Positions 296-62,034 of a DNA stretch of 64,000 nt are shown one piece after another. Each line of letters begins with the position of its first letter. The first letter of the stretch is position 1. Location of the stretch: contig OX597814.1 in the NCBI GenBank assembly GCA_951406725.2, forward strand, positions 135,098,001 to 135,162,000, written 5' to 3'. The notes under the pieces are model-generated. The model made no database searches, was not told the DNA's origin, and was given only the letters and a program-made list of their open reading frames with translations. The translations under genes and the position numbers were made by a program. The stretch comes from Octopus vulgaris. Lineage: Eukaryota.

Positions 296-509
296 ACAGT
301 ATTACTGATCTTTTTCAGTTAATTTTACCAATTGATTTCACACACAAGTTAGGAGATAATTCAAGATGGTACTCATCAGAAAGGCTGGCGTAAAGAATAT
401 GGCCATACTTTGCATGCCAGCCCCTCTGATGAGCATTGCCTTAGTTTTCCTTTAATTTGTATGTGAAACCAATTGGTAAAAATCAACTATAATGGATCTA
501 TAATACTGT
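296..509. mobile_element. Fold-back element with a hammerhead motif in each arm
   Basis: Inverted arms centred on TATGGCCATA (398-407); plus arm CTGATGAG(426)..GAAAC CAATTG GTA(478); minus arm core at 326-379. Confidence 0.72.
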
Positions 510-620
510 AAAAGATAAATGATATACTCACTCTATTGATAAATATACGAGTGCCTGTTTTTTTCTGATTAATGGATTCTTACATGACCTATGTGTGTGT
601 GTGTGTGTGTGTTTCATATA

Positions 621-671
<51 letters not shown>

Positions 672-786
672 TCAAAATGGAGATAAATACCATTTCTCCA
701 TGTGATCGGCTTGAAAAACTGCTAAGATATTAAGATACTTTTTCTTAACATGAAACCAATGGTAGCCTTAATATACAAATAAAGAA

Positions 787-864
<78 letters not shown>

Positions 865-1282
865 AGTAAAATGAAGATTATGAAGAAAGGAGGAGAAAAT
901 AAATAAGATGTTAAACACATACTAGAAAAAGTGTAGAAATATGAAATGAAACAGGAAAAAAGGATCTAGATTCTCTGATGAATATAAAAATGAGGATGAT
1001 GATGATAATGATTATTGCTTTTAAGCTCTAAGACAGCCCAGATTAAGCAAACATATATTCAAAGACATTCCATCCATGATCACTCCAGTCTTCCACATAC
1101 TGAAGAATATACTATCCTATGTGTCCTGTTGTCAAGAGATTTGAAGGAGCTTACGCTCCAATTTGTAACAGGCTGAGCAACCATGTAGAGGCTCCTTCAT
1201 TAATGATGATGAAGATGATGTTAGTAATAGAGATGATGACAAAATTCTTTATAATAATAAAAATTAAAGAAAAAAACCTTAC

Positions 1283-1405
1283 TTTATTCATTTCTTTTGT
1301 TGTTTGCTTCAATTGTGAGGAAGTTTTCTTAAAATTTTTTGTAATTTCTTCAACGTTCTGTTCCAGCTGACTTATTGTTTCTTCTTTCTGAGCCAGTAGT
1401 TTTTT
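1283..1405 (-). CDS. EEA1: EEA1 coiled-coil exon (KKLLAQKEET...TTKEMNK)
   Basis: 123 nt phase 0-0, ctctag acceptor, AAA|GTAAGG donor. Confidence 0.87.
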
Positions 1406-4400
1406 CTAGAGAAGTCAGAGAAATACTAAATGAACAAAGCAGTCATCAAAATATTCAAAGATTCAATAATAATTTAGTCATTTGCAATTGTATAAAAGTA
1501 AACACAGAACAAAAAAAAATAGCATTATCAAATTAGAATTAACTGTTAATTGCTTGAACAAATTATTAAAAGAAACAGGAGACAGCCAATCTAATTAGCC
1601 AATATGTGTCTCATAGTAATAAATATTAATGGTTATATGTGATGATTTGGTGAGTCCCATAACACTCTGAAACATAGAGGTCTATCAAACATTTCATCTT
1701 TATGTAGTACACAAAGAACAAGTTAGCTTTGCAGAATCCATTCCTGTCTGAGCTAATCCACAGGAAGAATTCAATGTAAAACTCTGCAATATAAGCTTAT
1801 GATGCACTTAGAAGTTTATAATTCTCACTATTTACACTGTTGTATCTATTTACAGCTAGGCAGTCTTGGCTATTTGAGAGTTAAATGTTTTGGTCACAGA
1901 TACAAAACAGTATTAGTGACAAGATATGTATAAACAACTAATGTCTTGATTACTTATCTGGTATCCTACCAATTTGGCCTAGAAGATTGACAGAGATTAT
2001 ATAGTGTACAATAATTTAATAGAAGAGAGAGTCAGAGAGATTGCATGTGAGACTACTTTCATCTTCAGTTAATTCCTCAGGAGAGACCATTTTGTTTTTG
2101 ATTCTTTAAAGAAATATCAGAGGAAGACAGAAACTGAAGATAGATTTGATATACACTGAAGATAAATTCAATGTTCACAAAACATAGCTGCAATATTCAA
2201 TAAAGAAAAGTTCTAATGATCCATTATGACAACAGCAATGTTCCAATAGTAGTTTCAAATTTTGGCACAAGGCCAGCAATTTTAGTGGAAATGGGTAAAT
2301 CAATTACATTGGCCCCAGTGCACAACTGCTACTTATTTTATAAACCCTGAAAGGATGAAAGGAAAAGTTGATCTTGGCAGCATTGAGCACTGTTCAATAA
2401 TGACGGCTGCAATGTTCAAATAAAGACAACTGCAATATTCAATAAAAATGGCTACAGCTGTCATTATGGCAAAAGCTATAATTGTTATGAAAATACCAGA
2501 CACAAGGAAATCAGCATATATCACAGTGAGATTATATTATTGACAACATACATTTTCATCTAGTTCTCGTTCTATTCCTGAACACTTCAATGTTAACTCA
2601 TTGTTGAAGTTCATCTGTTTCTTCAAGGCATCATCTAATTGATCATTTTTGCTTGTTTTACCTTTGAGTTCTTCTTTTTGCTGTAATATAGATAAAAAAA
2701 ACCCATTTAATTTTGTGATTAACATTTAGTAAAATTCCTAATATAACAACCTTTCATTTACTTGTATATTCCATTGTTCCATTTTCAATGATTAGAACCA
2801 GTTTTGAGCCCCTCATATTTAATGACAGCTGGAAAAGAATTGAGACCATTGTCCAAGGGATCATAGTCTGGTTCAAAACTTTTGGAATAAACCTTATATA
2901 CTAAATTATATTAATGTGTCTTCCTATCACAACTCCTCAAACACTGGTATTTAAGATTGTTTTGAAAAGAAAACTCACAGATATTCTTGCTATTTCATCA
3001 CGTATCATCTACACATTTTATCAGCTGCATTTAAGCCAACATCTACATTTAAGCCAACATGCTGCACAAATCTTTCTACTTTTCAGCATCTTCACTTTGT
3101 GCATTTCCTTAAACCCTAATCTATATTACATGCATAGTTTCATTCTAAAGACTATCCCCACAATTAATTGCAATTTCTTTCTGATGTATATTACACTAGT
3201 TCTCAATCAGAAGTACAACTGTTTTTGTCCACATTTAAAAACCAAATATTAGTTCATGGGCACAGAGTTCATATGGTTATTTTACATACATCATTACCTT
3301 TTAATTCATATCAGGTAAATTTCATTTGTTTTATTCAAATTTAGAAAACTGAAATTAGTTAATGTAGATAAAGATGAAAAAAAAATCCAAACAATGATAA
3401 CCTGTTCTATTTCTTGTTTAAGTCGATTAATTTCAGTGACCTTCTCCTCCACCAAATTGTGACTAGTCTGTAAATGATTTTCCAGATCAACTCGTTCTGT
3501 GGTCCTGGATGTTTCACTAGCTAGAAGAAGTTCACTCTAAATAAGTAGAAGAGAAAAAGAAACATTAAAGTTACACAATATTTCAGATTTTATAACAGCA
3601 TTCCTTAAAACTATTTATACTATGATCAATTAAATGCGAGTGAATTTATCAACAAAAACTACAGAATTTGTTATTTTTATTTATTTATTAATTAGTTGAG
3701 ATTAACATTAATAGGAAAATGGTAGACAAGAAGAGATAAGCTTCATAGCTGAACTAAAAATAAATGAAGCAACACATGCTTAACTTCTGATTTCATGTCA
3801 CAACGAAAGTCATCTTGCCTTACATCCTCCTGCAGTTGATAAAAATTTGTACAATTGACTATATCCACCTCTAAAATTTGTATCTTGTGTCAATGTCAGA
3901 AATCAATATAATTCTCATTGACAGTTCTCTACAAATATGAAACTTTTATAGATTTGCCAAGATCAACTGACTTCTTTTTTAGCCATACTAACACTTTGGA
4001 AGTTATGAAAAAATACATGTCATTTTATTAAATCATGTCTTATAAAATATATATATATCTTATAATATAAATAAAAAATATGAAGTGTCTGGTACGACAT
4101 TGAGGAGTGGAGACAAATCAGAAATTGTGAGAGGAGGTATTGAGTTGGTCAAGATGAAGGTGGCAACTAGTAGGAAGAAAAGTTATTGAATCTATAGAAA
4201 AAGCAGAGCAAAACAGTATCTTTATAAGCCAGTGATTGCAATGTGTTATTGAGCAAATCTTTGTCAATGAGCTAATTGGCCTTCTTTCTTTTTTTCTTTT
4301 AATATGTGGGCTAAGATATCTGTGTGAGTGGCAGCAGTACAGTCCCAGATACTTGAGCAGTACTCCAACATTCAGTGCATTTCATGTTTGTAGATGAACT

Positions 4401-8669: not shown

Positions 8670-8751
<82 letters not shown>

Positions 8752-9528
8752 GTTATGAGAGATAATGGTGTCAATAAGACCTAAAGGTGTCAGGTAATGC
8801 TGAGTAAGTGCTATGGATAGACTATAGTTAAGCTCCAGGCTCGGTGATTATGCAAATGATTATGCGTAGGTCATATATCAGCATGTGTATATATAAAAAT
8901 TTTCAGAATGATATAAAAATCCAAAGCTGTGAAAGAGTTTAGAACATTTATAAATAGGTCTTACAACTGTTTCCAAGATATTTTATATATCCCTTCATCG
9001 GATCCCAGAAACAGCTGTGAGACCTTCTATTTATAAATGTTCTAAAATCTTTCACAGCCTTGGATTTTTATCTCATTCTGAAAATTTATATATATATATA
9101 TATATATATATGGTTAAATAAATCAATGGAGTTAAACGCAGGTGTTATTCAAATCTTTATACTTCTGACATATGTTTTGAAGAAAACATTGGTATTATTC
9201 CAGAAGGAATAAAATGATGTAGAACAATGCAATCTTCTCATCTTTTTTTTCCTGATGAGAAGATTGCATTGTTTTACATCATTTTATTCCTTCTGGAATA
9301 ATACCAATGTTTTCTTTGAAACATATGTTGGAAGTATAAAGATTTGAATACCACCTGCGTTTAACTCCGTTTATTTATTTACCTGTTATACAAAAACATT
9401 TCACTAAGCCCTGGAATTTCTACCAGAATAAGAAGGCTGTTGCATCCTTGGTACTTATGTGAATTTTTGCTATCCTGGTATTTATTTTTTCCATGTTATT
9501 TGTACACTTTGAAAAAATACACATACAT

Positions 9529-9563
<35 letters not shown>

Positions 9564-15626: not shown

Positions 15627-15659
<33 letters not shown>

Positions 15660-40530: not shown

Positions 40531-43500
40531 CATACACAAATATATATTCCTTAATTGTTTTAAAGTAGCCATGCTACCAGTGTATACGTTAGCGGGTATG
40601 TGTGTGTTGAAACCTGCAAAAAATTTGAAGAGTTTAAATAAAAACTAAGTTAAGAAGTTTGTTCAGTGAGAACAAAACAAGAACTGAATGTTACATTAAC
40701 AGTGCAATCAATAGATTAATTAATAATTAATTGGTAGATATTTAACCAACATACAAATTTTAATCATATATAATAGATGTTTGGGATATAGTCTTTATAT
40801 AAACCAGTTTCCACATTGTGGAGTATAATCATGTAGTTTAAATCCTTGTAATTTGAATGTAGCTTTACACACACACATCCATTATCATAAATCTTACCAA
40901 TTGGTTTCAAACTGGTTATTAAAACTGGATGTTAGATAACAGCACAGTTACATAATACCATGTGTTCATCAGAGCTGTATGGAAAAAAAACAAGGCACCA
41001 TATATTTTTTTCATAGCTGCTAGCTCTGATGAGCATGCAGTATTAATTGTGCTGTTATCTAACATCTGGTTTTAATATCTGGTATGAAATCAATTAATAT
41101 GATCAGCAGTAATATATGATACTGTAGACTTTGATTAATATATATATATATATATAAATACAAGAAAAAATGGATGTAAATAACAAGGAGAAATTTATTG
41201 TTTTCACTGGTATGTCTTTAATTTAATTAATTAACAAAGAAGAAGGTAGCATTTATGATTGTTTCAACTTAGTTTCAGTAAATATCTTCAGAATGCGAAA
41301 AATAAATTGATACATTGGTAATGGTAATATAGTCAAAATTTGTTAGTCTTACATTATATTATGTTCTTAAGTTGATTATTCTGCTGAGGAGTGGATTTCA
41401 TTGTAGTAGATTGGTTAGTTTATGGTTCTGCTGGGTAATTAAAGCAGGGTGTATATTATTTTGGTGTGGAATCCCGAGTTTGACTAAGCACATTTTTTGT
41501 GCACGTGTGTATTAAATTGGTTTTAATCAGCGGTGAGTTTTCGTCACCAGCGGTATAAATTAAGGAGGGTCACTCTAACTTAAGGTGAAAAAGGAGCTAA
41601 CTCAAACTGGATTGTTTACACTAGGGAGAGTGGTTTAAAATTATATTATGGCTAAAGTTTAGGAAGTTCATAGTGATAAAAGGGGCCCTATGTAGGTGTA
41701 AAGTAAACGTTTAAGGTGGTTCTCAGCTAATTAGACTTATATAGATGAATATGCTAGTGTGGGATTTGTAGAGGATCCTACTATTTTACCTATACTTTGA
41801 AAAGACAAAGAAGCCTACATGAAGACAAAACCTGTGGCTCTCAAATTTCCTATTGAGGAGGGGTTGTTTAGCTAGGCATTCTGATAAGCAGAGATCATAG
41901 CATCTGTTGGCGGTGTTGTACAAGGTTGTTTTTGTAAGTATATGCCAGTTTAATCTATAATCTATTTTTTTTATCCTTAAGCCTTTTATCTATTGAGCCC
42001 TGTTGAATTTGCCTTACTCCTATTTCTGAAGTGTGTTATATCTAAGTATCATTTGGATTTTAGTGGTACCTATATATGATTTTTATCTGGCTATTTGTGT
42101 GCACATCACATTAGTAAACTGTGTTATTTGTCTTACATCTATTTGAGAAATGGCACTTCGTTCCTTCCCTGCAGCCACAAATTATTAGGTATATGTGTTC
42201 GTGTTATGTTGTGGGGGCTATTACTGTTCAGATCTATATCTAAGTTATTAGGAGGCACTACGTTAGTGGTGGGCTTAATTCTATTTGTTGGTTGGTTATT
42301 ATTTTTATTGTTCACAATTTTTCTAGTTTCATAGAATTTGTTTAGTTTTTTATTATTTATTGAGGCTATGATTTTAGCTAAGTTATTGGTCAGGTTGTGG
42401 CCTACTCTAATTTTATACCTAAATAATTCTGCGTATTTATTTTTAACGTTTAGGTGTTTATCTATGATTTTCATTAATGAGCGAACTATGTCTGATTTGA
42501 GGTGCATGGTGAAGGGGATTACAAGCCAGATTATATCACTATTTTGTTTATTTTTTGTATTGTTTTTTCTGGTATAGAACCTACCCACCTTGTTTGTGAG
42601 TTGTGTGAAGTTATGGTTATGGCTATCTAGCTTATTTCCCTAGTTGGGTTTTACTTTCCTGTTACTTTTGTCTGTTTTATTGGTATTGCTTGCGTAGGGT
42701 TTATGTGGACTAGATGGCATGGTTTCCTTGTTATTAACAGGGTTCATATTGGTTCTTTGGGGTGCTTTAGTTTTATTCATACTGATGTGTAGGCTTATAT
42801 TATTATTTTTGTAGCTAATGTTATTTTTGGGCTTATTTGTGTACTTGGTGTTATTAGTTGTGTTAATATTGTTCATCTTATTGACTATTACTTTATTGGT
42901 ATTAGTGTTGTAGTTATTTTCGTTATTACTGGTGGTTTGTATATGGGCCTTGGCGTTGTTATTATTGGGGTTACCCATACTGTTCTTATTGTTGGTGTAG
43001 TTTGTGGTGATGTATGGTGTGTGGTTGGTATTAATGGTTTTAGTGAATGGGTATCTGTTATTTGGGCTACTTGTATGGTGATTAGAGTGAAGGTATTTAA
43101 TTTTTTGTTTAAATCTTGCTTTCTGTAGTGCGGAATTATAGAGTTCCTTATGCCTATTAAAGATATTTATGTTGGAAGACAGGCATGATATTCTATTGCT
43201 AATGCTATGTATTAAGCCACTCTTAATAAAGTTTGGGTGGTTACTAGAAGCGTTTATGTATTTGAGGTTCGTGTTGGGTTTTGTATAGGGTTCATGGAGT
43301 CTTGTGGCTAGGATACAGTTTGTGTGTAAGTAGTTAATAGAGGTGTGTTTCTTTTCAATAGAAATAGATAATCCAATTGATTCCTAACTCTCTTTTAGTT
43401 AATTAGTTAGTATATATATATATATACTAATTAGTTAGTATATATATATATATACTACACTCTCGGAGTGGTTGGCGTTAGGAAGGGCATCCAGCTGTAG

Positions 43501-44861
43501 AAACACTGCCACATCTGACTGGCCTGGTGCAGCCTTCGGGCTTCCCAGACCCCAGTTGAACCGTCCAACCCATGCTAGCATGGAAAGCGGACGTTAAACG
43601 ATGATGATGATGATGATGATGATATATATATATATATATATAAACACTAACTAATTAACTAAAAGAGAGGTAGGAATCAATTTACAAAGTCCAGTTGAAT
43701 GTTTGATGCAGTATATGCTGGTTTACAGCATTGAGTTCAAATCCTACAATAGATTAGTGTTTCATCCAGAAAAGAGAGATTCTGTCCATATAACTCAGTG
43801 GTTCACAACCATTTCTTGCCTATGGACCCCTTTGATTACTATTCCAGTGGACCCACATAGTCATTTGATTTTTTAAAACTAGTTTTATAGCTATTTCTCT
43901 CAAAATTCCTAACTTGTGTAGGTTGAACTATGTAAAACGTTAGAGACAGAAACCTAGCCGTTTCTTGTAATAAAAACATCCAAAGTAACACTTTTTCATG
44001 GACCCTTAAAATAATACTGTGGATCTCCAGTTTACTATTTTTGCCTGTGTGGACCCTGGTTGAAAACCACTGATATAACTGATGTTATTAATGGGAACTG
44101 AAACAAACTCCATTTACAAATCCAGTTCACAATACTTCTCAGTTAAATTTAGATCATTTCCTATTGTAATTTAAAAGTCTCATGAACTAATGGTGGGAAG
44201 GATGCCACTAAAACTGACATACTATGTCAAAATAATGTTTAACATTAAATAACAGTTAGTGATAATATTACTCTAATATTTTCAAATTGCTGTCAAAAGT
44301 CTTTCATCTACCACAACATTATAAGTTATTACTTTTTAATCCTCAGCAGAATAATGTGAGTGAGTTTCATTAACTGATACAATGCAGTGGAATTCTGCTT
44401 TAAGCATGCCATATAACTCCTCGTTACATTAAAAAAAAATTTTTAGAAAATGTTTGCAAATTTGTTTTCTACATATGAGATTTCACACAGCTATCAAAGA
44501 AAAAAAACTTTTAAAATTTTTTACAAAATTAAAAAAAAAATTACATTATTTAAATTTGATGGATATTTGTCCTTATCTTGTTTGTTGTGAACACAATGTT
44601 ATACCCTCCAGCCTTCATCAGGTGTATCGGGGAAATTTTGAACCTGGGTTCTCATAACTAAGGTATTTTTCGATGTTGTTGTTGTTGCTCTTCTTTTTCT
44701 TCTTATAATTATTCAGGTCACTGCCTGGAATCAAACTTGGAATCTTAGGGTTAGTAGCCCGTGCTCTTAACCACTATGCCATATACCCATGGGCATATGG
44801 AACAGTGGTTAAGAGCACAGGCTAATAACCCAAAGATTCTGAATTCAATTCCAGGCAGTAA

Positions 44862-44918
<57 letters not shown>

Positions 44919-45883
44919 CAACAACAACAACAACAACAATAATAATAACAACAACATATTGTAAAATACCTTAGGAATGAGAGAGAACCCAGGTTTGAAA
45001 TTTCTCCAAAACACCTGATGAAGGCTGGAGGGTTGTGTTAACAACAAACAAGATGAGGGCAAAATATCCGTCAAATGTAGAAGGAAAATTTTTTTTAGTT
45101 TTTAGAATTTTATTTTTAAATCACAGTTTAAAATATGCACAGTCCAAATTTTGGGCTTTAATCCCAGCAATAGACCATTAAATGTGTTTATGGGGAGAAA
45201 GATATTGAAAAACATAAATACATCAGACTGGCAAATAAACAAGGAGAGTATGAGGTGGTCATGAGATGTGCTAAAAATCCCAGCTAATCATGCACCAAAA
45301 AAATTTTTGGGGGTTTATGCATAATCATATGAATTCCCATATGTATAACACAAATTGCAAAACTTTTATGATGATTCCAAAAATTAAAAAGTTAAGTAGG
45401 GTTATATGGTGTGCTTAGAGCAAAATCCGCCTGCAATTCAATGTTAATAGCAATAGTACAGACAGAGGAAACAGTGAATTTAAAGATTAGGCTTTGAACA
45501 TTGGTTTAGTTGATGTAACAAATTCTACATTTTCTAAATTCCAAAACAACACTGTCTACTGCTTTGATTAAATATCAGTATTAAAAAAACACTAACATCC
45601 AATCAAACAATGATATGTTAACACACTTGCACAGTTTCAGTCACCAGGTGGAAGCATAGAGGGTTGAGATTGAGAATTGTGCAAGAGAGTGACACATGCG
45701 AAGAAAGCAATATCAAATACCAAAAGCTTATAAAACAACAATTAGAACAACCACAAGCAAAACAACACCAGCTAAAAGATGCATGTCAAAGACAAGATTC
45801 CTGAGTGATACCTCAGTTTCACTGCTAACGTCTGAAACTGCTTCAAGAGCTTCATGTTCAGGTGAAGAGACTGGGCTTAAACT
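1283..45883 (-). CDS. EEA1: Early endosome antigen 1 (EEA1) orthologue, 22 traced coding exons (816 codons); start codon unresolved, 3' part with FYVE domain outside window
   Basis: All exons have GT-AG ends and compatible phases. The joined protein resembles human EEA1 (recalled, not aligned): EGFICPQCMK zinc finger, LKDEQWYVTELKKELEKYQ, RPEEDDATVLKQELISVQTLM..LEREKE, and KIEAGEGAETAINQLKQEN. Confidence 0.93.
2552..2680 (-). CDS. EEA1: EEA1 coiled-coil exon (QKEELKGKTS...ERELDEN)
   Basis: 129 nt phase 0-0, ttacag acceptor, AAT|GTATGT donor. Confidence 0.87.
3402..3536 (-). CDS. EEA1: EEA1 coiled-coil exon (SELLLASETSRTTERVDLENH...KQEIEQ)
   Basis: 135 nt phase 0-0, CAG|GTTAT donor. Confidence 0.87.
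4085..4960 (-). mobile_element. Old CR1/Jockey-like LINE relic
   Basis: Minus strand LEYCSSIWD at ~4343-4369 and LQSLAYKR motif downstream. Confidence 0.55.
5591..5821 (-). CDS. EEA1: EEA1 coiled-coil exon (NNLTEKVNNLEQELDRK...LQGELQTK)
   Basis: 231 nt phase 0-0, tttctag acceptor, AAG|GTTAG donor. Confidence 0.88.
5942..6312 (+). mobile_element. Family B tRNA-derived SINE; other copies ~10893-11220, 38648-39043, 46838-47010, 61471-61640, 62546-62975
   Basis: Head GTGGCTGTGTGGTAAG..GGTTCGGTCCC (A/B boxes), internal microsatellite, tail GACTGAAACAAGTAAAAGAG. Confidence 0.85.
6532..6585 (-). CDS. EEA1: EEA1 exon (IEAGEGAETAINQLKQEN)
   Basis: 54 nt phase 0-0; conserved EEA1 coil-break motif AGEG. 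Confidence 0.92.
7791..7884 (-). CDS. EEA1: EEA1 coiled-coil exon (EEKLKEMEEQTENLRKDIQRLEVERTDLINK)
   Basis: 94 nt phase 2-0; resembles EEA1 EREDLYAK preceding IQAGEG. Confidence 0.9.
8024..8412. repeat. 23-bp minisatellite (CTCCACACTCGGATGTCACTAAA), ~16 progressively degenerate units
   Basis: Four near-identical units at 8024-8115, then increasing divergence. Confidence 0.85.
8463..8545 (-). CDS. EEA1: EEA1 coiled-coil exon (EKFSDELKAEVREKSTQLQESLRKFAL)
   Basis: 83 nt phase 0-2, AA|GTAAGT donor. Confidence 0.88.
8890..9093. mobile_element. Fold-back element in (TA)n with decayed hammerhead (GAAACAGCTGT type)
   Basis: ~80 bp inverted arms; minus arm CCGATGAA GGGATAT..ATATCTTG GAAAC AGTT GTA; plus arm truncated GAAAC AGCT GTG. 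Confidence 0.68.
9112..9383. mobile_element. Near-perfect ~130-bp-arm fold-back with hammerhead motif (GAAACATATGT type)
   Basis: Loop of about 10 nt at ~9243-9253; plus arm CTGATGAG(9252)..GAAAC ATAT GTT(9329); minus arm has AAAAC ATAT GTC and is 5'-truncated. Confidence 0.78.
9712..9798 (-). CDS. EEA1: EEA1 coiled-coil exon (LQNTLETNQIQVKDLERELEMMNQQFEAK)
   Basis: 87 nt phase 0-0, AAA|GTAAGT donor. Confidence 0.88.
10652..10789 (-). CDS. EEA1: EEA1 coiled-coil exon (LEKTVDERNS...MKQQTDK)
   Basis: 138 nt phase 0-0, tctttcag acceptor, AAG|GTTTG donor. Confidence 0.9.
12280..12447 (-). CDS. EEA1: EEA1 coiled-coil exon (LKEDCKKYQD...ETNERIVK)
   Basis: 168 nt phase 0-0, ttccag acceptor, AAG|GTAAAT donor. 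Confidence 0.9.
12820..13345 (+). mobile_element. RTE-clade LINE RT fragment
   Basis: FIIVLQAITEEFKTGCPWKLLYADDLV..LRINLAKTKVL. Confidence 0.88.
13566..13733 (-). CDS. EEA1: EEA1 coiled-coil exon (FEEELKYYQQ...KLNVENQQ)
   Basis: 168 nt phase 0-0, within ORF 13557..13757. Confidence 0.9.
15056..15161 (-). CDS. EEA1: EEA1 coiled-coil exon (LHSELNSKQSTIHQLELQVEKKNNSVLEIKNEKTK)
   Basis: 106 nt phase 2-0, AAA|GTAAG donor. Confidence 0.88.
15712..16016 (+). mobile_element. Family C tRNA-derived SINE (tandem core); other copies ~2250-2382-, 23643-23860-, 28150-28222-, 31285-31440-, 35030-35240+, 55050-55250+
   Basis: GAGCTGGCAGAATCGTTAGC head and GCCTTTCATCCTTT..GGGTCG.TAAATTAAGTACCAG core. Confidence 0.8.
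16109..16545. mobile_element. MITE with ~85 bp degenerate TIRs
   Basis: TTTCCTATTTG..CTAGAAA..TTCAAATTTTGC versus GCAAAGTTTGAA..TTTCTAG..CAAATAGGAAA. Confidence 0.6.
16858..16926 (-). CDS. EEA1: EEA1 exon (SLKQIGHLEAQLNTLPKSADLS)
   Basis: 69 nt phase 2-2, attttag acceptor, GA|GTAAG donor. Confidence 0.85.
18152..18426 (+). mobile_element. Family A SINE/LINE-tail repeat; other copies ~7280-7692+, 17283-17615-, 19880-20119+, 21300-21600+, 29213-29430-, 32046-32290-, 32810-32894+, 40052-40256-, 43455-43623+, 47124-47361+
   Basis: Shared GAGTGGTTGGCGTTAGGAAGGGCATCCAG..CCAACCCATGCTAGCATGGAAA..(GAT)n, same as RTE 3' end. Confidence 0.85.
19026..19166 (-). CDS. EEA1: EEA1 exon (PEEDDATVLKQELISVQTLMNKVNLEREKEKEDLEKLYNDLHIKHE)
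   Basis: 141 nt phase 2-2; strong resemblance to human EEA1 RPGIEDVAVLKKELVQVQTLM segment. Confidence 0.93.
20361..20419 (-). CDS. EEA1: EEA1 coiled-coil exon (QQLEDKTQQVEKLENQLSL)
   Basis: 59 nt phase 0-2, AG|GTAAA donor; split codon makes R of RP motif. Confidence 0.88.
21122..21208 (-). CDS. EEA1: EEA1 coiled-coil exon (AGDIVTAKALADEVFGQKAALEDHITTLK)
   Basis: 87 nt phase 0-0, tttaacag acceptor, AAG|GTGAAG donor. Confidence 0.87.
22170..23200 (+). mobile_element. RTE-clade LINE 3' end with (GAT)n tail
   Basis: KLKVVDSFRYLG, AMLHGSETW and WYGHV-like motifs, tail ..AAACGACGATGATGAT. Confidence 0.85.
23203..23435. mobile_element. Tc1/mariner-type MITE
   Basis: TIR CAGGGTTGGCCAAAAGTCACC(T/C)GACAGTAAA; TA on left, TG on right. 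Confidence 0.82.
23904..24010 (-). CDS. EEA1: EEA1 coiled-coil exon (AKELRAMASELTETKKQLEEVNQIKAGVEQKAAKL)
   Basis: 107 nt phase 1-0, CTG|GTAAG donor. Confidence 0.9.
24305..24368 (-). CDS. EEA1: EEA1 exon (EREEFEFYRVQMKSFEENQNV)
   Basis: 64 nt phase 0-1, cag acceptor, A|GTAAG donor. Confidence 0.85.
24910..25323 (+). mobile_element. RTE-like LINE 3' end (second family)
   Basis: LRRTERVMVREICGVKL..WYGH-like motif, (GAT)n tail. Confidence 0.7.
25777..25897 (-). CDS. EEA1: EEA1 exon (SQMEELKKQLKDEQWYVTELKKELEKYQEGTDGAIPFTKK)
   Basis: ctcag acceptor phase 2 fits previous exon; AAG|GTAAA donor; alternative phase-0 acceptor gives an exon end at 25890. Confidence 0.9.
28508..28614 (-). CDS. EEA1: EEA1 exon, C2H2 zinc finger 2 (EGFLCPLCKKPLPSQDALEKHYMSVHDGKIPTVEE)
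   Basis: tttttag acceptor, AA|GTAAGT donor, 107 nt phase 0-2, C-x2-C-x12-H-x4-H; frame not shown in ORF track. Confidence 0.88.
30098..30202 (-). CDS. EEA1: EEA1 exon, C2H2 zinc finger 1 (GFICPQCMKTFNSAEILQNHFQEHNVVKRDYADGG)
   Basis: tttcag acceptor, GGT|GTAAGT donor, 105 nt phase 0-0, C-x2-C-x12-H-x3-H. Confidence 0.93.
32896..32995. other. Assembly gap (100 N) within a (GAT)n SINE tail
   Basis: Run of 100 n flanked by ATGATG on both sides. Confidence 0.99.
34359..34745 (+). mobile_element. Family D tRNA-derived SINE with duplicated head; relatives ~48130-48380+ and 55520-55860-
   Basis: Two tandem copies of GGC..TAGTGGTTA(G/A)GGTGTTGGA..GCTCCAGTCCACTCAGC. Confidence 0.72.
34777..35006. 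mobile_element. piggyBac-type MITE (TTAA ends); relatives at ~18089-18586 (SINE inserted), ~19610-20162, ~51734-51963
   Basis: TTAACCCTTTTG..CAAAAGGGTTAA termini. Confidence 0.78.
35470..37130 (-). mobile_element. Penelope-like retroelement fragment (RT C-half, thumb, GIY-YIG endonuclease, 3' pLTR hammerhead), frameshifted
   Basis: GLYRDDTLA RT motif near 36935; YINTGSCHP; PPFSLNIKTRVGKIFL; CSCRGNTTCPLN..VVYKA..YVGATEGPF; WKILEKC..CRLCLAEK..LNSRSE..CLH; hammerhead core at 35513-35587. Confidence 0.88.
38000..38330. repeat. Degenerate ~28-30 bp tandem repeat (CACAGTGTGTGGAATACT core)
   Basis: Recurring TGTGGAATA(C/T) motif at regular spacing. Confidence 0.5.
39762..39966. mobile_element. Mariner-type MITE
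   Basis: GAGGTGCTGAAAAGTTCCTGGC versus GCCAGGAACTTTTTAACACCCTC. Confidence 0.7.
40890..41108. mobile_element. Fold-back element with hammerhead cores in both arms (GAAACCAATTGGTA type)
   Basis: Minus arm CTGATGAA(40972-40965)..GAAAC CAATTG GTA(40895); plus arm CTGATGAG(41026)..GAAAT CAATTA ATA. Confidence 0.72.
41200..43410 (-). mobile_element. Second, older Penelope-like retroelement fragment with Asn/Thr-rich linker and 3' hammerhead relic
   Basis: YINASSNHP thumb motif near 43250; IIWLVIPF..IIDKH (ORF 42139..42588); IYIGTT and DLCLSE GIY-YIG-region motifs; GCATT CTGAAGA..GAAAC AATC ATA AATGC at 41249-41296. Confidence 0.78.
43796..44072. mobile_element. hAT-type MITE with perfect 8-bp TSD
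   Basis: CAGTGGTTCACAACC..GGTTGAAAACCACTG; TSD ATATAACT at 43788-43795 and 44073-44080. Confidence 0.88.
44554..45076. mobile_element. Palindromic head-to-head dimer of a tRNA-derived SINE with CTGATGA-containing tail
   Basis: Centre CCCATGGG (44786-44793); each arm has A-box-like (T/C)AGTGGTTAAGAGC, B-box-like sequence, AAT/AAC microsatellite, then CACCTGATGAAGGCTGGAGG. Confidence 0.78.
45812..45883 (-). CDS. EEA1: EEA1 exon, acidic N-terminal segment SLSPVSSPEHEALEAVSDVSSETE
   Basis: Acceptor ttttttccag, donor GAG|GTATC, 72 nt phase 0-0; supplies the E preceding GFICP as in EEA1. Confidence 0.75.
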
Positions 45884-46186
45884 CTGGAAAAAAAGCAAAA
45901 AGAGTTTATTTATTTTTATTATATTACTCATACAGAGATGTCTGTGACAACATGGTTTGTAGCTAGCATCCCCCTGAGATACAAGACCTCCAAAGAGTCA
46001 ACATTATAGATATTGACCAACTTAAGAATTCAGAATAAAATCACCTGAAACACTGTAAAGATAACAGAATCAAAATTATATCTAAATTCATTTTATAGTA
46101 AAAAAAAAAAAATGCAGGACAATAAATAGCAACATCATTTAGTGATCAGAATGGGACACCGAATCTAACAAACTATTTAAAGATAG

Positions 46187-46648
46187 AGTGGTTGTATACT
46201 GTCAACATAACGTGACAGTCCCATAAGGGAATTACACCACCGCTGTTTAGCCCTATCGGCTCTGATACATTTCCTGTGTCCTTATATTTGCGAAGGGGAG
46301 GCAAGCACCCCCACCTGCTAGGATTCACACCTGAGGACATGCATGTTTCTGGGTCTTAACCCATCATCAGCCCAGGATAGTGAGACCTGCTGGTTGAGAT
46401 GCCTGCCTAGCCTTCGCAAATATATATATTTACAGTGAAATCTATTCACTGGTTACCGTAATTAGAAATATTAAATTTCTAAATGTCTCAAAGAGACATG
46501 AGCGGTGGTGGAGCGATATAGTGGTTGTATAATGTCAACATAACTTGACAGTCCCGTAAGGGAATTACACCACTGCTGTTTAGCCCTAGGAAGCATCGAC
46601 GCTTCCTGTCGGCTTTGACACATTTCCTGTGTCCTTAGATTTGCGAAG
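46187..46648 (-). mobile_element. Retrozyme-like element: ~333-353 bp unit with ~110-130 bp terminal direct repeat and one hammerhead
   Basis: Direct repeats 46187-46295 and 46520-46648 flank the hammerhead-containing hairpin 46284-46423. Confidence 0.65.
46330..46376 (-). ncRNA. Type I minimal hammerhead ribozyme, apparently intact
   Basis: Minus strand reads CCTGGG CTGATGA TGGGT-TAAG-ACCCA GAAAC-ATGCAT-GTC CTCAGG: stem I 6 bp, full core, stem II 5 bp plus tetraloop, palindromic stem III, GUC cleavage triplet. Confidence 0.85.
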
Positions 46649-47425
46649 CAACATTTCTCAAGCCTTTTGCTCTTGCAAACCCCTTGAAATACATTCCCAT
46701 CCCAGAGTACTCCTATATGAAAATTATATATCTTCATTTTCTTTTTTTCTTTTATGAAGTTAAATTTTGTAAGAGAGTAAACCAATCATAAAACTATCTC
46801 TGAATGGTTTGGCAATCCTATATTTAACAGATGACATGACTGTGACTGAGTGGTAAGAAGTTTGCTTCCCAACCACATGGATCCAGGTTTAGTCCCACAG
46901 TGTAGCACCTTGGGCAAGTGTTTTCTACTATAGCTTCGGGCCAACCAAAGCCTTGTGAGTGGATTTGGTAGATGGAAACAGAATGAGGCCCATTGTATCT
47001 ATGTGTGTGTATTTATATTCTTTAAGTTTGTTTATGGGAAACATTTTTGAGTACACACATAAAAGCTCCTATGTTGTTATGATGGTTACAGCCTAGTGAT
47101 TCCAACTTGCAACAACAGTTTTATGGCATGTAAAAAGCACCATCCGATTGTGGCCATTTGCCAGCCCCGTCTGGCACCTGTGCAGGTGGCATGCAAAAAA
47201 CACCCACTATACTCACGGAGTGGTTGGCATTAGGAAGGGCATCTAGCTGTAGAAACACTGCCAGATCAGACTGGGCCTGGCGCAGCCTTCTGGCTTCCCA
47301 GACCCCAGTTGAACCGTCCAACCCATGCTAGCATGGAAAACAGACGTTAAACAATGATGATACTGAATTGTGCTGATATAACATAGGATAAATATAGTAA
47401 TAATAATAATAACAACAACAATAAC

Positions 47426-47856
47426 AATAATCCATGGATGGAATTTATAAATATTTTAATGCATCGCTGTACGTTTTCACAAATCACATGCTTTTTGTGA
47501 CCACAGTCTGCATTCCTGGGAAAATTACAATACAATTTGTATTACCCATGGACATCAGGTGGGTCTCTGTTCATGCATTCATTTCTTCAGGTGATCTAGC
47601 ATTAAAGTTGGAACTAACAAATGTTCAACTGAAGGATTTTTATAAATATTCACCAACTAAAAGGCTCATTGGGTTATGTGGGCAGTCCTGGTGTATTTGG
47701 ATTAATTGCGAACAAAGATCCACCTGATGTCATAGATATTACAAATTGTATTGTAATTATCCCAGGAATGTGGACTATGGTCACAAAAACGTGTGATTTG
47801 TGGAAACACGCATAGCGATACATTAAAATATTTATAAATTCCATCCATAGATTATT
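47426..47856. mobile_element. Fold-back element (~150 bp arms) with variant hammerhead-like motif
   Basis: Inverted arms flanked by (AAT)n/(ATT)n; CAC CTGATGT(47724)..GAAAC ACGC ATA GCG(47817). Confidence 0.62.
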
Positions 47857-48986
47857 ATTATTATCATTGCTATATATATGTTGTATGTGTGTCCCCTCCT
47901 AACAACTGATGTTAGTGTGTTTACATCCCTGAAATTTAGCAGTTCAGCAAGAAGATTGAACAGTCAAGTGTCAGTTTAGTTGGAAAGAAACAATGCAGTT
48001 ATTAATAACAAGAAGAGTTGAAATTAATGCATGCAAGATTTCACAGCTCCGGCATCATTCCTTCATAGTTAACCTATGAAGTTTACAGCCCACCCTTGTA
48101 TTGTTATGCAGAAGTCTGCAAATATATTTATGAGAACATGTAGTCTTGTGGTTAGGGTACTGCACTTATGATCATGAGATTGAGGGTTCAATTCCCAGAC
48201 CAGGTGGTGTGTGGTATTCTTAAGCAAAAGATTTCATCTCTGCAATCACTTTGACATGTGACACTAAGTACCTGTACATGTAATATTGATTTGGTGGAAG
48301 CAATAAGCTACTGTGCATCAAAAACATTTTATCACTAAACAAATCATCTGTGCAGAATGTTCAACGAAAAAATTTCAGAACTGTTTTTGTTGGACTCAAG
48401 AGACTACCATTATTATTAGATGTCATAAAGGAGACAGGAGTAGCATTAGCAAATCTCATAAACTATTTAAAATTAAAATAGTGAAACTGAAAATAAAATA
48501 TATTGTGTCCAGCAAAAAATATCACACAGGGATTAATTTTCATTTGGTGAGGTTGATTTAGCAAAGGGATTTGAGGAAAATTACATAACACTAAATCTAC
48601 ACTACCAAATGATTTATTTTTGATATTAAATGGAATATAAATTAAATATTTTGACAAAACATAATGCCCCAATCTCACTGAAACTGATGAGACTTAACTA
48701 GGTTGAAACACCAGCCCTTGAGTTGTTAGACTTGCTTGTTTTCTTCAGGGATTAAAAATCCAAAGTTGTTTTTAGATTAAGGTTGGGAAAACTTTCTGAT
48801 ATAAAATTGTTTCCTATGTTTTGTGCATGTTACATTATTTTCTTCAAACACTATTTGTCAAATCTATGTCACTAGAGTATCTGTCCCCATCCTTTTTTTG
48901 TACTCATGTAAAACAATTAATCCAGACTAGGCAATCATGCTTGTAACAAAACACAATAAAGTGCAAAATAGAAAATACATGTTAGC

Positions 48987-49170
48987 GTGGATGTTCTGCT
49001 AGAACAAACTTTACTGTGTGGATGGCATGAGAAAAACTCTCATACAGGCTTTTGGTACAGAATGCATGCTGGTGATATAAACAAACAAGTGTGCATTCTG
49101 CACCAAAAGTCTGTATGAGAGCTTCTCCCATGGTATCTCTGCAGTAAAGTTTGTTCTAACAGAACATCCA
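48987..49170. mobile_element. Fold-back/MITE-like inverted repeat, no hammerhead seen
   Basis: GTGGATGTTCTG..GAATGCA arm versus TGCATTC..CAGAACATCCAC, ~80 bp arms. Confidence 0.65.
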
Positions 49171-49891
49171 CATTTAAGTGGGAATAAATATTAACCTCAA
49201 AGTGCATAATGTATAATTTAATTATTACATATATGATGCAAAAACACCCTGTAGATTGCAATAGTCAATAAATTAGAAATAACATTAAAAAATTAATTTT
49301 TTCTGTATGGCCATGAGCTGTGGATCATGTGGTACCAGGTTGCCATTTGTGTAGTGGCTGGAAACCACTACACTAAATGATGCATTATGAATATAGACTG
49401 ATGTATAGTCTCACTGAGTTTATAACTTCACTAAAGCTGATAAAAGTCAAGCAGATCTAAATTGTGATTCTTTAGTTCACTCTAGGAGTTATTACTCCAG
49501 CATTATTTTAGAGCCGGACTATGATAATTTCTTATATAAAATTTAGATTAATTTGTGCTTCTATTTTCTCCTGCTGAAAAAATACTTAGGATAAGAGGTT
49601 AAAATAACACAAGGTATTATAGAGTTAGAATTTGTTGATAAAAGAAAACCATTTATACTGTGAACAGCCGAAGAATTTATAAACTTCAAGAGAATATGAA
49701 ATAATTCTCTTTTGGAATGGTGAAACTCAAAGAAGATAAAGCTATAAAAAATAAAGTTTCTAAAGTAGAGAAATTCAAAGGATTGCTTTGGACCCATAGT
49801 AGAACACCTGTCAGGTTTACTGAAGATATAAGTTTGAGTTCCACAGGTAACCTTTAACCTTTTCCATCCAAAGGGTTTTCTAACTCAATCA

Positions 49892-52738: not shown

Positions 52739-52824
52739 ATGAAACTGAAGAGATCTGATTTTTTTTCAAATTGAAGTAAACAATTGAGATTAGGAATTTT
52801 TAAAAACAAAAATCTTTTTAGTAT

Positions 52825-54527: not shown

Positions 54528-54561
<34 letters not shown>

Positions 54562-55959
54562 CTTTCCTCTATTAATCTCGTAAATATGTGAATAGCTATG
54601 TTTTGCTGAAGAGGTCTAATAAAATTGAAACATGTCCAGAGTTGTCATTTTGTCTGCTAAAGCTCAAACTATTCTTCTCTCACTATGTTGCCTATTTCTT
54701 ATATAAAGACTAGGAAACAAGCCCATTTCAAAGAGCAGTTTTAAAAATTATTTTTGAGTTATTGCACTTATCTTTGCTGGTTGATTTAAGCATAATTCAT
54801 GAATATAATGTTGACTAACGAAAGTTATCATGCTCACCACACTGTATTACTGGTTATTTCACCATCTATAATCTAATGTGTTTACTAAAGAAGCTGCACT
54901 TCTGCCGAAGAGCTTTAACAAAAGCTAAGTTGGTCCAGAGTTCCCTCCCATACTTTCCAAGTAAAAGAAAAAAAAAAAAATGCTGATCGTTAACTAACAT
55001 TATTTAATGTGTAAAAATAATATCATCAAGTAATATTACTTCTTAATGTAAGGTGGTGAGCTGGCATAATCATTACTGTGCCAGGTAAAATGCTTAGCTG
55101 TATTTTGTCTGTCTTTACATTCCGAGTTCAAATGTTACTGAGGTCGACTTTGGGGTTGATAAAATAAGGACCAGTTGAGCATGAGTTGATGTAATCAACT
55201 TACACGCCCACCTCCAAATTGCTGGCCTTGTGCCAAAGATTGAAGCCAATATTACTTCCTAATTTCAATATACTTTTGATTTTTAATGCTCAAATCATTC
55301 AACAAGTGGATGGTCCTTGAGTGCTTTTAGCAACATTCAAACTGTAGACAGCATTAGGATCAACCCTCATGTTTGTAGTAGAGATATTTAAGCTGGACAC
55401 CAACTGCAATCTTATTAGTCTTGGAAGGAACTATAAAGATTATAGGTACTGTCCCCTCCTCTGATGACTAACTTATGTAACTGAAAAAATAAAATAATAT
55501 CTTGGTCATTACAAAACTTAGGTGAGAGCTGTATAAACCATGTTAACTGGCACACTGTCGGTTACAACGATGAGGGTTCCACATGATACCTGTTCGTGAT
55601 TAACAGAACAGCCTGCTCGTGATTAACGTGCATGTGGCTGACCACTCCACAGACACGTGTACCCTTAACGTAGTTCTCAGGGAGATTCTGTGTGACACAG
55701 AGTATGACAAGGCTGGCCCTTTGAAATACAGGTACAACTCATTTTTGCCAGCAGAGTGGACTGGAGCAGCGTGAATTAAAGTGTCTTGCTCAAGGATACA
55801 ATGCCTTGCCGGACATTGAACTTACGACCTTGTGACAGTGAGCTGAATACTCTAACCACCTAATGACCTAGATTTCAAAGCTGAATCTATTGAAGTATTA
55901 GGGGATACATTCTAAATGCAGATGTAAAGAAAAGTAGGAATTCTAGATGATGTATTTAA

Positions 55960-57723: not shown

Positions 57724-58249
57724 ACAACCGAAACTATAGGAAATAGGCGATAATGTTATAAATTGAACAGAAACTGTGTAGGTAAAATACATAATGGTAA
57801 AAGTTACAACAGTAAATGTTGTAAAAGATTACGTTTTTTACAGAGGAAAATAATCAGAATTATTAGGGAAAACTGCAATTCTTCCTATAGTTTAGAATCC
57901 TTTTTCTATATAAAAGAGGATTAGCTAATGAAATGAAGTAAAATTACTTCAACTATAAATCACTGAGTTCCTAACATCTCACGATTTAAAGTTGCATATT
58001 GAATTAATTTCATATTGTAGAACTTCATACTAACTGGTAATAATTGCCATGCATACTATGAGAATCCGAGTTTCCTTTCGAAACTATTCTAGCAGTGTAA
58101 TGTAATAATTTGTCTAGTAAAGGAATTTATATTTGAGACTCTAACTAGAATATGCAGCATTTTTCTGGGGAGCATATAAAAAAAAATAAACAAAAAATAT
58201 ATCAGTGGAATCTCAATGCCAAGATTCATTATACCCTACTCTACATAAT

Positions 58250-59200: not shown

Positions 59201-59392
59201 GATCATTAAACCCTTGTGTGGCAGAAGATTCTTTTCATTTCACCCTCCCTATAAAAGGATTTTACCAAGTCAAAGCAACCACTTATTGGATTATAATTTC
59301 GATTCCTACTTGAAATTAATTTCATTTCATTTGCTTTTAGTAAGGACATGGATATTACATTTAATTTCTTTCGACTGGGTGCATTCAAGGCG

Positions 59393-59429
<37 letters not shown>

Positions 59430-59926
59430 ACAGGCGAATTTTTAATATTATACCCGTCTCACAAAACGGGTGTAAACTCTGATTGGAGGATTTTTACAAT
59501 AGCTACCACATCCTCGTGGAGAAGGTTAAAGCAAGAAACTGAGTGGCTGTTTCCTTTTGTGAAAGAATTTTTTGTCCAAAATATTTTTTTTTTCTTTTAC
59601 ATTTTTACTATTACACTCGTCTCACGAGACTGGTGTAATAGTGTAAAAAGATTTTTAAAACCCCTCAACCTCAGGGGTGGAAAAAAATACTATTCTGATA
59701 GCAGGTGCTGCGCAAGGCTCTATTTTCCACGAACTCTGTTTCGATTCCCAATATACTTGGAAAAGGCACCAATATCACAGGTTTCAATTTTCTTACACTC
59801 TGTAAATCAATTAAATTCATATCGATACAAGAAATATTGTTTCGGACTAGGTATCGTGCAAACTTTGGCAGACGAATCAACAAGTTTTTATGTCACCGCC
59901 CCCAACAAAGTACACATATTAAAGCA

Positions 59927-60258
59927 ATGTTCAACACCTTAAAAGAACACAAATTGCTGCAGCTAGCTTATATGATAGAAAATGATAAGTTACAAATCAA
60001 CAGTGTTCGAGATGGTCAATTGTTAACAAACATATTGGAGAATTTTCTTTTGTTGACATTGAATAAAGCACATTACGCCGAAAGAGAAAGTTTTTTTCTA
60101 GAAAATATATTCAGATATAATAATAAAGGAAATCAGGATGTGTCTTTAAAATTACCTTGTCAGAGTCCTTTTTTGTTAGGAATCGACGAAGCATTTTCCA
60201 GTAATTTTGATTATCGTGAATATTTAAAAATTATTTTTAAAGATTTAATTCCTTGGAA
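59927..60258 (+). CDS. Candidate coding exon of an unidentified plus-strand gene (MFNTLKEHKLLQLAY..DLIPW)
   Basis: Part of a 185-codon stop-free non-repetitive frame; ATG at 59927, possible donor AA|GTAAAT after 60258; no homology recognised. Confidence 0.35.
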
Positions 60259-60901
60259 GTAAATTGCTTTCAAACAGAAACACCGCCATAACAGAACGTT
60301 CTTTATTCATATAATAGTGTACAGTCGACAATATAAAGAGACCACTGTCATACAAAGAACTTCAGCCGAACTCGTTTTTATCATATCACATTATAAGGAC
60401 AGGATTGATCAAATTGCTTAATTTTCTTGCATGCAATGTAGGTCAATGTGTTTCTATTTGCTTGCTTCTTTGTGATATATACAAAAAAAGCCTATGTACG
60501 TTTCGATTCTAGCCTATGAATAAATGCATAATTTCAAGAATTGGATTAAACCCAATGGTGAGAATCAATTATCATTTTGAATAATATAGGGTAGAATCTC
60601 TCAAGGGTTTTGGTCTTTTAAAAAAAGGAAGGTTACATGCTTATGGAAACGATTAAATTTAATCCCTTCCATAATCATGTAATTCAAAAATTTATTTGTA
60701 TTCAGATTTTATCTTGGAATGATGTTAACAAATTAATTTACATCCTTACCAACTCTCCATTTTCTCATCTTTTATGAAATAATACTTATAATAATCCCAT
60801 ACATATTGTGGGTTCTTTCTTCGAATATGTTGGTGATTAAACCCGTGAAATTTTTGATATATTAATCCCTTAGGAGGATAAGACATCCTTGACTTGACTG
60901 A

Positions 60902-60944
<43 letters not shown>

Positions 60945-61094
60945 ATATATATATTTGAGTAGAAAAATGAAATATCTTTTTATGGATAATTCATTTAACC
61001 GATACCTGGGTAGCAAATTCACATCAGAAATAACACGGTTGAAGTTACGTGCCTAGGGCAGAGACTACGTGTTTTCGTGTGGAAATTTGTGTGT

Positions 61095-61438
61095 ATTTTT
61101 ATAAAATTTATGAATAAATGAAAGAATGGAGTTGAACGACAAATTAACAAATTTCCTTTATTTTCAACATATGTTTCGAAGGCTGCATATTCCTAATTAT
61201 GAAGGAATAAGGAGTACATTATGCCGCTTTCTCATCAGGAAAAACAAGGAATTTATGTCAGCATCAAGATTCACAAAAACTTTTAGATGACTGCTCTCAC
61301 GGAGAAAGCGGCATAATGTACTCCTTATTCCTTCACAATTAGGAATATGCAGCCTTCGAAACATATGTCGAAAATAAAGGAAATTTGTTAATTTGTCGTT
61401 CAACTCCATTCTTTCATTTATTCTTAAATTTTATAAAA

Positions 61439-61440
<2 letters not shown>
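61095..61440. mobile_element. Young fold-back element with full plus 5'-truncated inverted hammerhead (GAAACATATGT type)
   Basis: ~140 bp near-identical arms; minus arm CCTTGTTTTTC CTGATGAG..GAAAC ATAT GTT GAAAATAAAGG; plus arm begins at GAG and keeps GTC (61367-61369). Confidence 0.8.
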
Positions 61441-61471
<31 letters not shown>

Positions 61472-62034
61472 GGCACAGGCGTAGCTGTGTAGTAAGAAGC
61501 TCGCTTCCCAACCTTATGGTTTCAGCTTCAGTCCCACTGCTTGGCACCTTGGACAAGTGTCTTTTACTATAGCTTCAGGCCGAACCAACACCTTGAGAGT
61601 AGATTTAGTAGACAGAAACTGAAAGAAGCCCATTGTGTCTGTGTGTATGTGTGTGTGTGTGTGTGTGTGTATGCATGTGTATGTGTGTTTTTATATATAT
61701 GATTGAAGAAATTGGAGTCAACATGAAAGAGTACAGTTGGACAGTTATTCTTTAATCACTACAATTGTTTCCACACCACATGGTTCTCCAAAATTATAGG
61801 TATTTGGTTATGCAATTGTTTGCTTGTATAATGAGATCCCGTTGTGTTTCCTCGGTTGATATTCAAGTGTTGTCTCCGTTAGTTTAAAAACTTTGAATTC
61901 AAGTCCATCCCATCCATTCATCTCGGAAAATAATGCTATCAGATAGTATTATCTGGTAGCATCAGGTGGGCGACCTTTATTCTGTATGTTGTCAAGTTCT
62001 TAACAGAATATACCATAACTATTTATATGTATGC

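Follow-up and report, generated by a model that had tools for sequence, protein, structure and literature searches.

Hammerhead-bearing hairpins in an Octopus vulgaris window as probable truncated ends of Penelope-like elements, one family having a tRNA-like head

The window analysed here is a 64,000-nt stretch of the Octopus vulgaris genome (contig OX597814.1 of the 2.8 Gb assembly GCA_951406725.2, positions 135,098,001 to 135,162,000; coordinates below count from its first letter). It is 34% GC, abounds in microsatellites and short repeats, and contains many inverted repeats that carry hammerhead ribozyme motifs. A preliminary description of this DNA attributed the motifs to Penelope-like elements (PLEs) accompanied by separate, non-autonomous hammerhead fold-backs. 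Comparison with genomic relatives leads us to conclude that most of the hairpins are very probably pairs of 5'-truncated 3' ends of coding PLEs, each end a pseudo-long terminal repeat (pLTR) with its predicted hammerhead, set head to head. Across the window this amounts to a known phenomenon at high density, expected in a PLE-rich genome; the less ordinary part, overlooked in the preliminary description, is a coding PLE with a tRNA-like head.

Hammerhead-family insertions in the window

The insertions, with strand in brackets where one applies, are as follows.

296..590: head-to-head pLTR stub of the CCAATTGG family, with a core at 379 (-), another at 426 (+) and a tail confined to the right, ~510-590
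8772..9090: head-to-head stub of the AGCT family; core broken; family tail on the left, ~8772-8890
9112..9520: head-to-head stub of the second CATATG family; the core at 9252 (+) is intact, the left arm breaks off within its core, and the tail lies to the right, ~9383-9520
26286..26331 (-): hammerhead standing alone, from another repeat family with 312 candidates
35485..37050 (-), outer limits approximate: decayed PLE whose GIY-YIG-like frame spans 36191-36583 and whose 3' end contains a hammerhead of the CCAATTGG family (35587-35513)
40875..41135: head-to-head stub of the CCAATTGG family; cores at 40972 (-) and 41026 (+), the latter with stem III altered
41165..43400 (-): decayed PLE that includes an Asn-rich stretch, an endonuclease remnant (~41790-42140) and, at 41291, a GATC-family hammerhead of its own that has decayed here
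44532..45096: stub of the tRNA-headed PLE, its arms head to head and both without the GAAAC box; apex a short palindrome at ~44785
46182..46648 (-): retrozyme-type insertion of ~1.3 tandem units with one intact hammerhead (46376-46330)
47375..47873: head-to-head stub with a one-sided tail, its family probably having a GCGC hammerhead with long stem II
48987..49200: fold-back with no recognised hammerhead, listed for comparison, whose relatives have a variable apex and a one-sided extension
54600..54642 (+): intact hammerhead standing alone, from an old family of repeats with 117 candidates
60955..61450: young head-to-head stub of the first CATATG family, copies 98-99% identical; the core at 61238 (-) is intact, the right arm stops after its CTGA box, and a tail of ~140 nt is present on the left alone
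61715..61965 (-): stub with a broken core, from the CAATTG (AATT) family; inverted tail remnant at ~61930-61965
62074..62380, right limit approximate: fold-back cut downstream of the ribozyme, a CAATTG hammerhead being present in 4/12 related loci

The preliminary description had asserted that hammerhead motifs recur here and proposed a comparison with dinucleotide-shuffled sequence, which bears the assertion out. A strict core descriptor (CTGAnGA..GAAA-palindrome-TH) matched 7 times in the window, whereas 150 dinucleotide shuffles made block by block gave 0.31 matches on average and 3 at most. If stems I and II are demanded as well, the figures are 4 and 0.01, and a second, fold-based descriptor gave 5 matches against 0.04 in 100 shuffles. 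One strict match, at 44346, lacks the stems and is a chance occurrence. Insertions of hammerhead-bearing families number about 14 in the 64 kb, or one per 4.6 kb; 8 of them retain all core letters in at least one arm. A scan of the window with Rfam found no hammerhead above the cut-off, the best being HH9 at 26269-26343 (E 0.091).

Five of the six families originally named are genome-wide. The sixth, a probable CTAG family at 55460, falls away: it is a single copy with a broken core and no GAAA box, whose one genome match is itself. Another candidate, at 48684, matches CTGATGA..GAAAC without the cleavage triplet geometry and had no match among the loci then compared. Further hammerhead families went unmentioned, at 26286, 41291, 44532-45096, 54606, 62074 and probably 47409, the last read by eye only (0/10 loci with the strict fold descriptor). 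First-look searches of the genome, whose counts are lower bounds, gave at least 115 candidates for the CCAATTGG family, at least 1974 for the 61.1 kb CATATG family, at least 5137 for the 8.9 and 9.1 kb families jointly, at least 1180 for the 46.3 kb family and at least 1209 for the 61.76 kb family.

Several sites needed correction in detail. Among the CAATTG-type sites, 296-509 and 40890-41108 are two-core hairpins, and 35513-35587 is one core in a single arm with no hairpin. The ATAT sites at 9112-9383 and 61095-61440 each keep an intact core, but the other arm is cut in or just after CTGATGA, and the two belong to two related families. The AGCT copy (8890-9093) reads CCGATGA, although 2 of the 6 relatives shown have the full hammerhead; the AATT copy at 61757 reads CCGAGGA, although the core is intact in 11/20 family loci. 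The hammerhead at 46330 is intact but sits in a direct rather than an inverted repeat.

Hairpin arms and the ends of coding elements

The window holds 17 distinct local inverted repeats, 11 of which were tested (those left out are at 15627, 16092, 17279, 23202, 43375 and 60633). Eight belong to hammerhead families, one of them by eye; one, the fold-back at 48987, is lopsided without a recognised hammerhead; and two, at 52.0 and 56.8 kb, are DNA-type. The earlier suggestion that hairpins resembling miniature inverted-repeat transposable elements (MITEs) are retrotransposon products holds for 8/11 but not for the DNA-type pair, the two longest hairpins of the window. No hammerhead was recognised in the 48987 family (0/10 loci; 1703 candidates), for which a ribozyme-less PLE clade such as Naiad could be the source.

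The link to coding sequence comes from longer copies. For the 61.1 kb family, 30 loci were sampled, equal to 26 insertions since four pairs are the two arms of one. All 30 have the 3' end in common, with the hammerhead behind the open reading frame (ORF), while the 5' extent varies from 58 to at least 860 nt; copies terminate at (TA)n or past a further 140-nt tail. The longest of them (L014, L029, L013 and L005) continue into the C-terminus of a PLE endonuclease, as does L223 of the 9.1 kb family. In the window (36.2 kb) and in 2/30 other loci, at a 69-70% match, a GIY-YIG-like frame precedes the CCAATTGG ribozyme by ~600-700 nt, and the window's second coding remnant ends with the 41291 ribozyme. 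GIY-YIG motifs were recognised by eye in the endonuclease remnants of the 61.1 and 9.1 kb families and of the window's 41-42 kb element; GIY-YIG look-alike scores were 0.94 for the window's 36.2 kb frame and 0.95 for L168, with a family share of 20-29% of members. A reverse transcriptase (RT) was reached only in the tRNA-headed family, where RVT_1 matches L153 above cut-off (E 1.2e-9). Counting the tRNA-headed family, longer copies of five families enter or follow a Penelope-type endonuclease remnant, so that the attribution of the motifs to PLEs is upheld. The domain order fits the Penelope/Poseidon clade, and the endonuclease end presumably resembles that of Poseidon. Because hairpin arms continue into PLE coding sequence in longer copies, each hairpin is best read as a pair of truncated pLTR copies that meet 5' end to 5' end. 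Next to the 41-43 kb remnant, at its 5' break, a 52-nt inverted repeat with (TA)n surrounds a copy of a short interspersed element (SINE) at 43375-43682.

The layout of insertions was examined most closely in the tRNA-headed family, in 90 loci chosen by ribozyme pattern alone; they are the first ones on the window's contig, and three look like copies of one region. An inverted partner is present in 55/90, the remaining 35 being solo arms. Among the 55 inverted loci the tail is on one side in 50, absent in 5 and on both sides in none. A target duplication of at least 8 nt, mostly 10-14 nt long, flanks 47/57 qualifying loci, compared with 5.4% of mismatched flank pairs.

These features bear on whether the hairpins might be DNA-transposon MITEs, for instance Mutator-like ones, with an incidental hammerhead match. 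Mutator-like elements have long terminal inverted repeats and 9-11 bp duplications, and the long inverted arms and 10-14 bp duplications seen here are of that kind; moreover, the window does contain DNA-type hairpins. A tail confined to one end, a variable apex, frequent solo arms, continuity with RT and GIY-YIG sequence, and a ribozyme core kept across families whose stems and palindromes differ all speak against it. The elements at 52.0 and 56.8 kb do have symmetric terminal inverted repeats and a fixed-length duplication, which the hammerhead families do not. We consider the MITE explanation highly improbable overall, and for the ORF-linked families the sequence comparisons refute it.

The two DNA-type hairpins have symmetric ends and 8-bp duplications. 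That at 56790-57741 is a young MITE (1242 candidates, copies 98-99% identical) flanked by 8-bp duplications; its terminal inverted repeats are ~215 nt long and start with GG, and a TG-rich tandem array lies inside it. The fold-back at 52015-52755 (2312 candidates) has symmetric GGATC ends, duplications of ~8 bp and neither tail nor hammerhead; its apex is variable, so that it combines DNA-type ends with a PLE-like centre.

The preliminary description favoured another explanation, namely that the hammerhead hairpins propagate themselves as non-autonomous elements, the whole fold-back being transcribed and mobilised as a unit. Exact genome counts for the tRNA-headed family (2193 35-nt ribozyme cores, 268 ORF-to-head junctions, 227 perfect 24-nt apices) lend it something, as loci with the same perfect apex are nearly as numerous as ORF-linked junctions; so do variants present in both arms at single loci (L227, L228) and the 46.3 kb family, which has no ORF link in 30 loci. 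However, the side of the tail is not in phase with the orientation of the apex (8 vs 6, counting perfect hairpins that keep both arms and have an AC/GT apex), and arms are nearly as similar between loci (91.5%) as within a locus (92.3%), which indicates that no single master hairpin is being copied whole. Junctions also vary widely, the arms are the ends of coding PLEs, and the hairpin transcripts are predicted to fold with 72-94% of their bases paired (-81 to -287 kcal/mol). Copying as a unit is accordingly improbable in general, and for the tRNA-headed family it is largely refuted.

The notion of a working ribozyme-hairpin system fares no better. The two cores of a hairpin lie on opposite strands facing outward, so that a single transcript would contain one ribozyme and its complement, in a molecule predicted to pair arm to arm. 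Since the cores are so arranged and many are decayed, most stubs are likely dead ends. Nor are most of the hairpins separate non-autonomous families: they are truncated ends of coding PLEs, and only the insertion at 46330 is a protein-less tandem retrozyme.

Three loci depart from the usual layout. L227 and L228, on the window's contig at 126.7 and 139.4 Mb, have private variants common to both arms of single hairpins, and at L185 the flanks are inverted as well as the arms; this suggests occasional arm-to-arm conversion or larger palindromic duplication.

The 46.3 kb family has a unit of ~353 nt (333 nt in the window copy) with a type I hammerhead and no protein, and its core is intact in 26/30 loci. 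Among its relatives there are partial tandems and inverted arms, and the 3' end falls at either of two points; sampled copies are mostly 1-1.4 units long. No upstream sequence is common to the 30 loci beyond the family's own tandem or inverted units. Two consecutive hammerhead-bearing units were found neither in the window (1.3 units) nor in the 30 loci (partial repeats), longer arrays not being sought. The family appears to behave like a metazoan non-LTR (long terminal repeat) retrozyme, and its unit is likely copied in trans by a PLE enzyme.

The hairpins have likely formed as follows. The element's enzyme would cut both target strands and copy RNA from both ends, and the use of two nearby start sites on the RNA would yield a one-sided tail (both steps drawn from PMC11167929). 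The two cDNAs would then be joined at their unfinished ends, mostly at the point where the RNA template starts or at a short palindrome located at that point. The fixed outer end, the variable inner junction, the tail on one arm and the coding continuation of longer copies are all consistent with such a scheme.

Several points weigh against deriving the hairpins from PLE ends. The Pfam GIY-YIG model did not match the endonuclease fragments, and a Pfam search of five window frames returned nothing relevant. All ORF pieces seen carry stops or frameshifts. The ORF links cover five families, which do not include the AGCT, AATT, 26.3, 47.4, 54.6 and 62.07 kb ones. The evidence for target duplications comes from a single family, the tRNA-headed one (57 qualifying loci out of 137 given), and duplications are unreadable for several window copies that lie within (TA)n. 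Finally, the strict fold descriptor finds a full hammerhead in few older copies (3/30, 4/30 and 0/10), partly because it permits no bulges and so misses bulged stems, as in the retrozyme family, where it recovers 5/30 against 26/30 intact cores.

A PLE family with a tRNA-like head

Arms of the family represented at 44.5-45.1 kb read, in order, a tRNA-like head with A and B boxes, (AAT)n, a minimal hammerhead, the 3' end and an optional 33-nt tail. The best match of the head is this genome's tRNA-Arg(TCG) in 3/4 heads (L102 scoring 62.5 against a shuffle maximum of 43), in a comparison with only 30 tRNA loci of 6 amino-acid types; neither Rfam nor ARAGORN calls a tRNA in it. An endonuclease end was first seen upstream of the head at one locus, and that piece used as a query gave 2334 candidates. 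In all 30 loci fetched with the endonuclease end (one being the query's own), the stop codon is followed within ~30 nt by at least part of the head, as read by eye. Together with the exact ORF-to-head junctions, this leaves no sign of a separate non-coding SINE family whose head is missing from the coding partner. The two longest copies contain RT and GIY-YIG sequence with stops and frameshifts. On the sequence evidence, the tRNA-like head is part of a coding RT and GIY-YIG element and lies directly behind its stop codon. A tblastn search of the window with the family's ORF pieces gave no match, so the window's two coding remnants are of other families.

In L151-L180 the minimal helix III CG and the CCG before GAAA have mostly decayed to TG or CA, as expected of CpG methylation.

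Of the 90 loci, 46 have a longest arm that ends at the head (-21 to +12); in 14 it extends further upstream, in 9 it stops within the head and in 21 it stops before reaching it. Of the 36 inverted loci with an end at the head, 25 have a single arm extending that far, and 10/35 solo copies begin there. Four contigs from sequencing runs, none of them recorded as RNA, contain the family but reveal neither an RNA start nor a cleavage end. The head may therefore mark the start of a short polymerase III transcript that serves as template. More fully, a coding PLE would have captured a tRNA-type internal promoter in its pLTR, and truncated copies keeping the head would yield short polymerase III RNA, to be reinserted by the element's own enzyme; we think this possible, with a little less than even confidence.

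Alternatively, the head could be a passive old SINE fragment with no polymerase III start, a native palindrome letting the cDNA snap back or anneal; this we would put at an even chance. A palindrome is indeed present at the start of the head in ORF-linked copies, palindromes at pLTR 5' ends and inverted junctions are reported in PMC3846280, and the failure of Rfam and ARAGORN to call a tRNA also fits. Two further observations weigh against a polymerase III step: several lopsided or solo copies retain remnants of the perfect apex, and in the 61.1 kb family, which has no tRNA head, 14/26 insertions end within a 31-nt window in a similar cluster. A passive head does less well with the arms and solo copies that reach the head singly, although later deletions could explain some of them. 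The commonest end is -7, and an end there fits a tRNA-type leader. The sense strand, moreover, has TTTT in 8/41 copies, against 37/41 on the opposite strand. We judge a polymerase III start and a palindrome or passive head about equally good as causes of the head endings.

For annotation, the MITE-like hairpins of this window, on the 11 tested, appear to be mostly retrotransposon stubs, so that automatic class I and class II totals may be off; tests of tail, apex and duplication separate PLE stubs from MITEs. Thousands of two-armed insertions also offer a genomic readout of the unsolved joining step of PLEs. The tRNA-headed coding element is a direct test case for short polymerase III copies spawned by a PLE. 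If a built-in SINE of this kind is real, the short mode accounts for about half of many thousand insertions, and it would be one route to tRNA-headed hammerhead repeats such as Sm-alpha.

Other repeats complete the window. An abundant SINE-like family ending in (GAT)n occurs at 18220-18425, 20030, 23004-23212, 29301, 32802, 40052-40257, 43416-43622 and 47124-47375, a second at 5948, 38656, 46846, 61485 and 62557, and a third at 2302, 23694, 28142 and 31283. Tandem arrays have 23-nt and 26-nt units (7949-8347; 7450-7559 and 21303-21510). Two overlapping stop-free frames at 59202-60262 (246 and 186 aa), without Pfam match, are possibly a decayed transposon gene, and 32896-32995 is a 100-base assembly gap.

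Comparison with known systems

A PLE insertion with an inverted truncated pLTR, an optional tail and an 8-10 bp duplication has been described (PMC3846280, PMC8557442), and opposite-strand hammerhead pairs 100-700 bp apart have been interpreted as truncated PLEs (PMC4209133). The layout of the head-to-head stubs is therefore already published and is not new here; the preliminary description had cited hammerheads in pLTRs and inverted, 5'-truncated insertion as established. For the anole Poseidon protein, in vitro work shows cleavage and extension of both strands and two nearby RNA starts that delimit the tail, and the ribozyme is unnecessary for insertion (PMC11167929).

Resemblance to Adineta Pen2a (PMC3846280), to the units in Fig. 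2 of PMC8557442 and to anole Poseidon PAc (PMC11167929) extends to the RT with C-terminal GIY-YIG, the pLTR hammerhead, the inverted 5'-truncated copy, the tail at one end, duplications of variable sequence, junction palindromes and Asn-rich inserts. Unlike in those units, ORF-less stubs dominate here, and many families occur together, with an insertion roughly every 5 kb; in several families the tail is as long as ~80-140 nt, compared with 30-40 nt as published; and one family has a tRNA-like head in its pLTR. The ribozymes are like the minimal hammerheads of metazoan PLEs (PMC4209133) in their short or palindromic helix III and the unpaired letter before helix II, and they likewise occur as solo motifs and as opposite-strand pairs at that spacing, but several families here have a very long helix II (50-115 nt). 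Neither the accessible portion of PMC4209133 nor a literature search yielded an octopus case of a minimal PLE hammerhead. In what could be seen of the sources, an octopus repeat annotation lists active Penelope families and MITEs with no mention of hammerheads (PMC13282606), and 235 hammerheads were counted in the giant squid without analysis (PMC6962438).

The 46.3 kb family is like the non-LTR retrozymes (PMC7229834, bioRxiv 10.64898/2026.07.22.740005) in having a protein-less unit, a type I hammerhead and more-than-unit tandems, and mussel units are 350-390 bp long. It differs in its PLE-type inverted arms and two 3' end points and is known here from DNA alone; two consecutive hammerhead-bearing units are the criterion of an active retrozyme (bioRxiv 10.64898/2026.07.22.740005).

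In a literature search that did not extend to Repbase, Dfam or the library of PMC13282606, we found no coding PLE with a tRNA head or spawning SINEs. The tRNA-headed family shares with schistosome Sm-alpha and Sj-alpha (PMC2770079, PMC8490949) a tRNA-derived head and a hammerhead in a high-copy short repeat; here, unlike there, the head follows an RT-GIY-YIG stop codon, no coding PLE with the head being named in the accessible portions of those papers. A small-RNA-derived polymerase III promoter within a terminal repeat also characterises the TRIMp3 elements Helenus, Ajax and Cassandra (PMC10886601). Those are non-autonomous LTR elements whose coding partner was argued to be unlikely to share the promoter repeat, whereas in the octopus family a coding PLE does share it.

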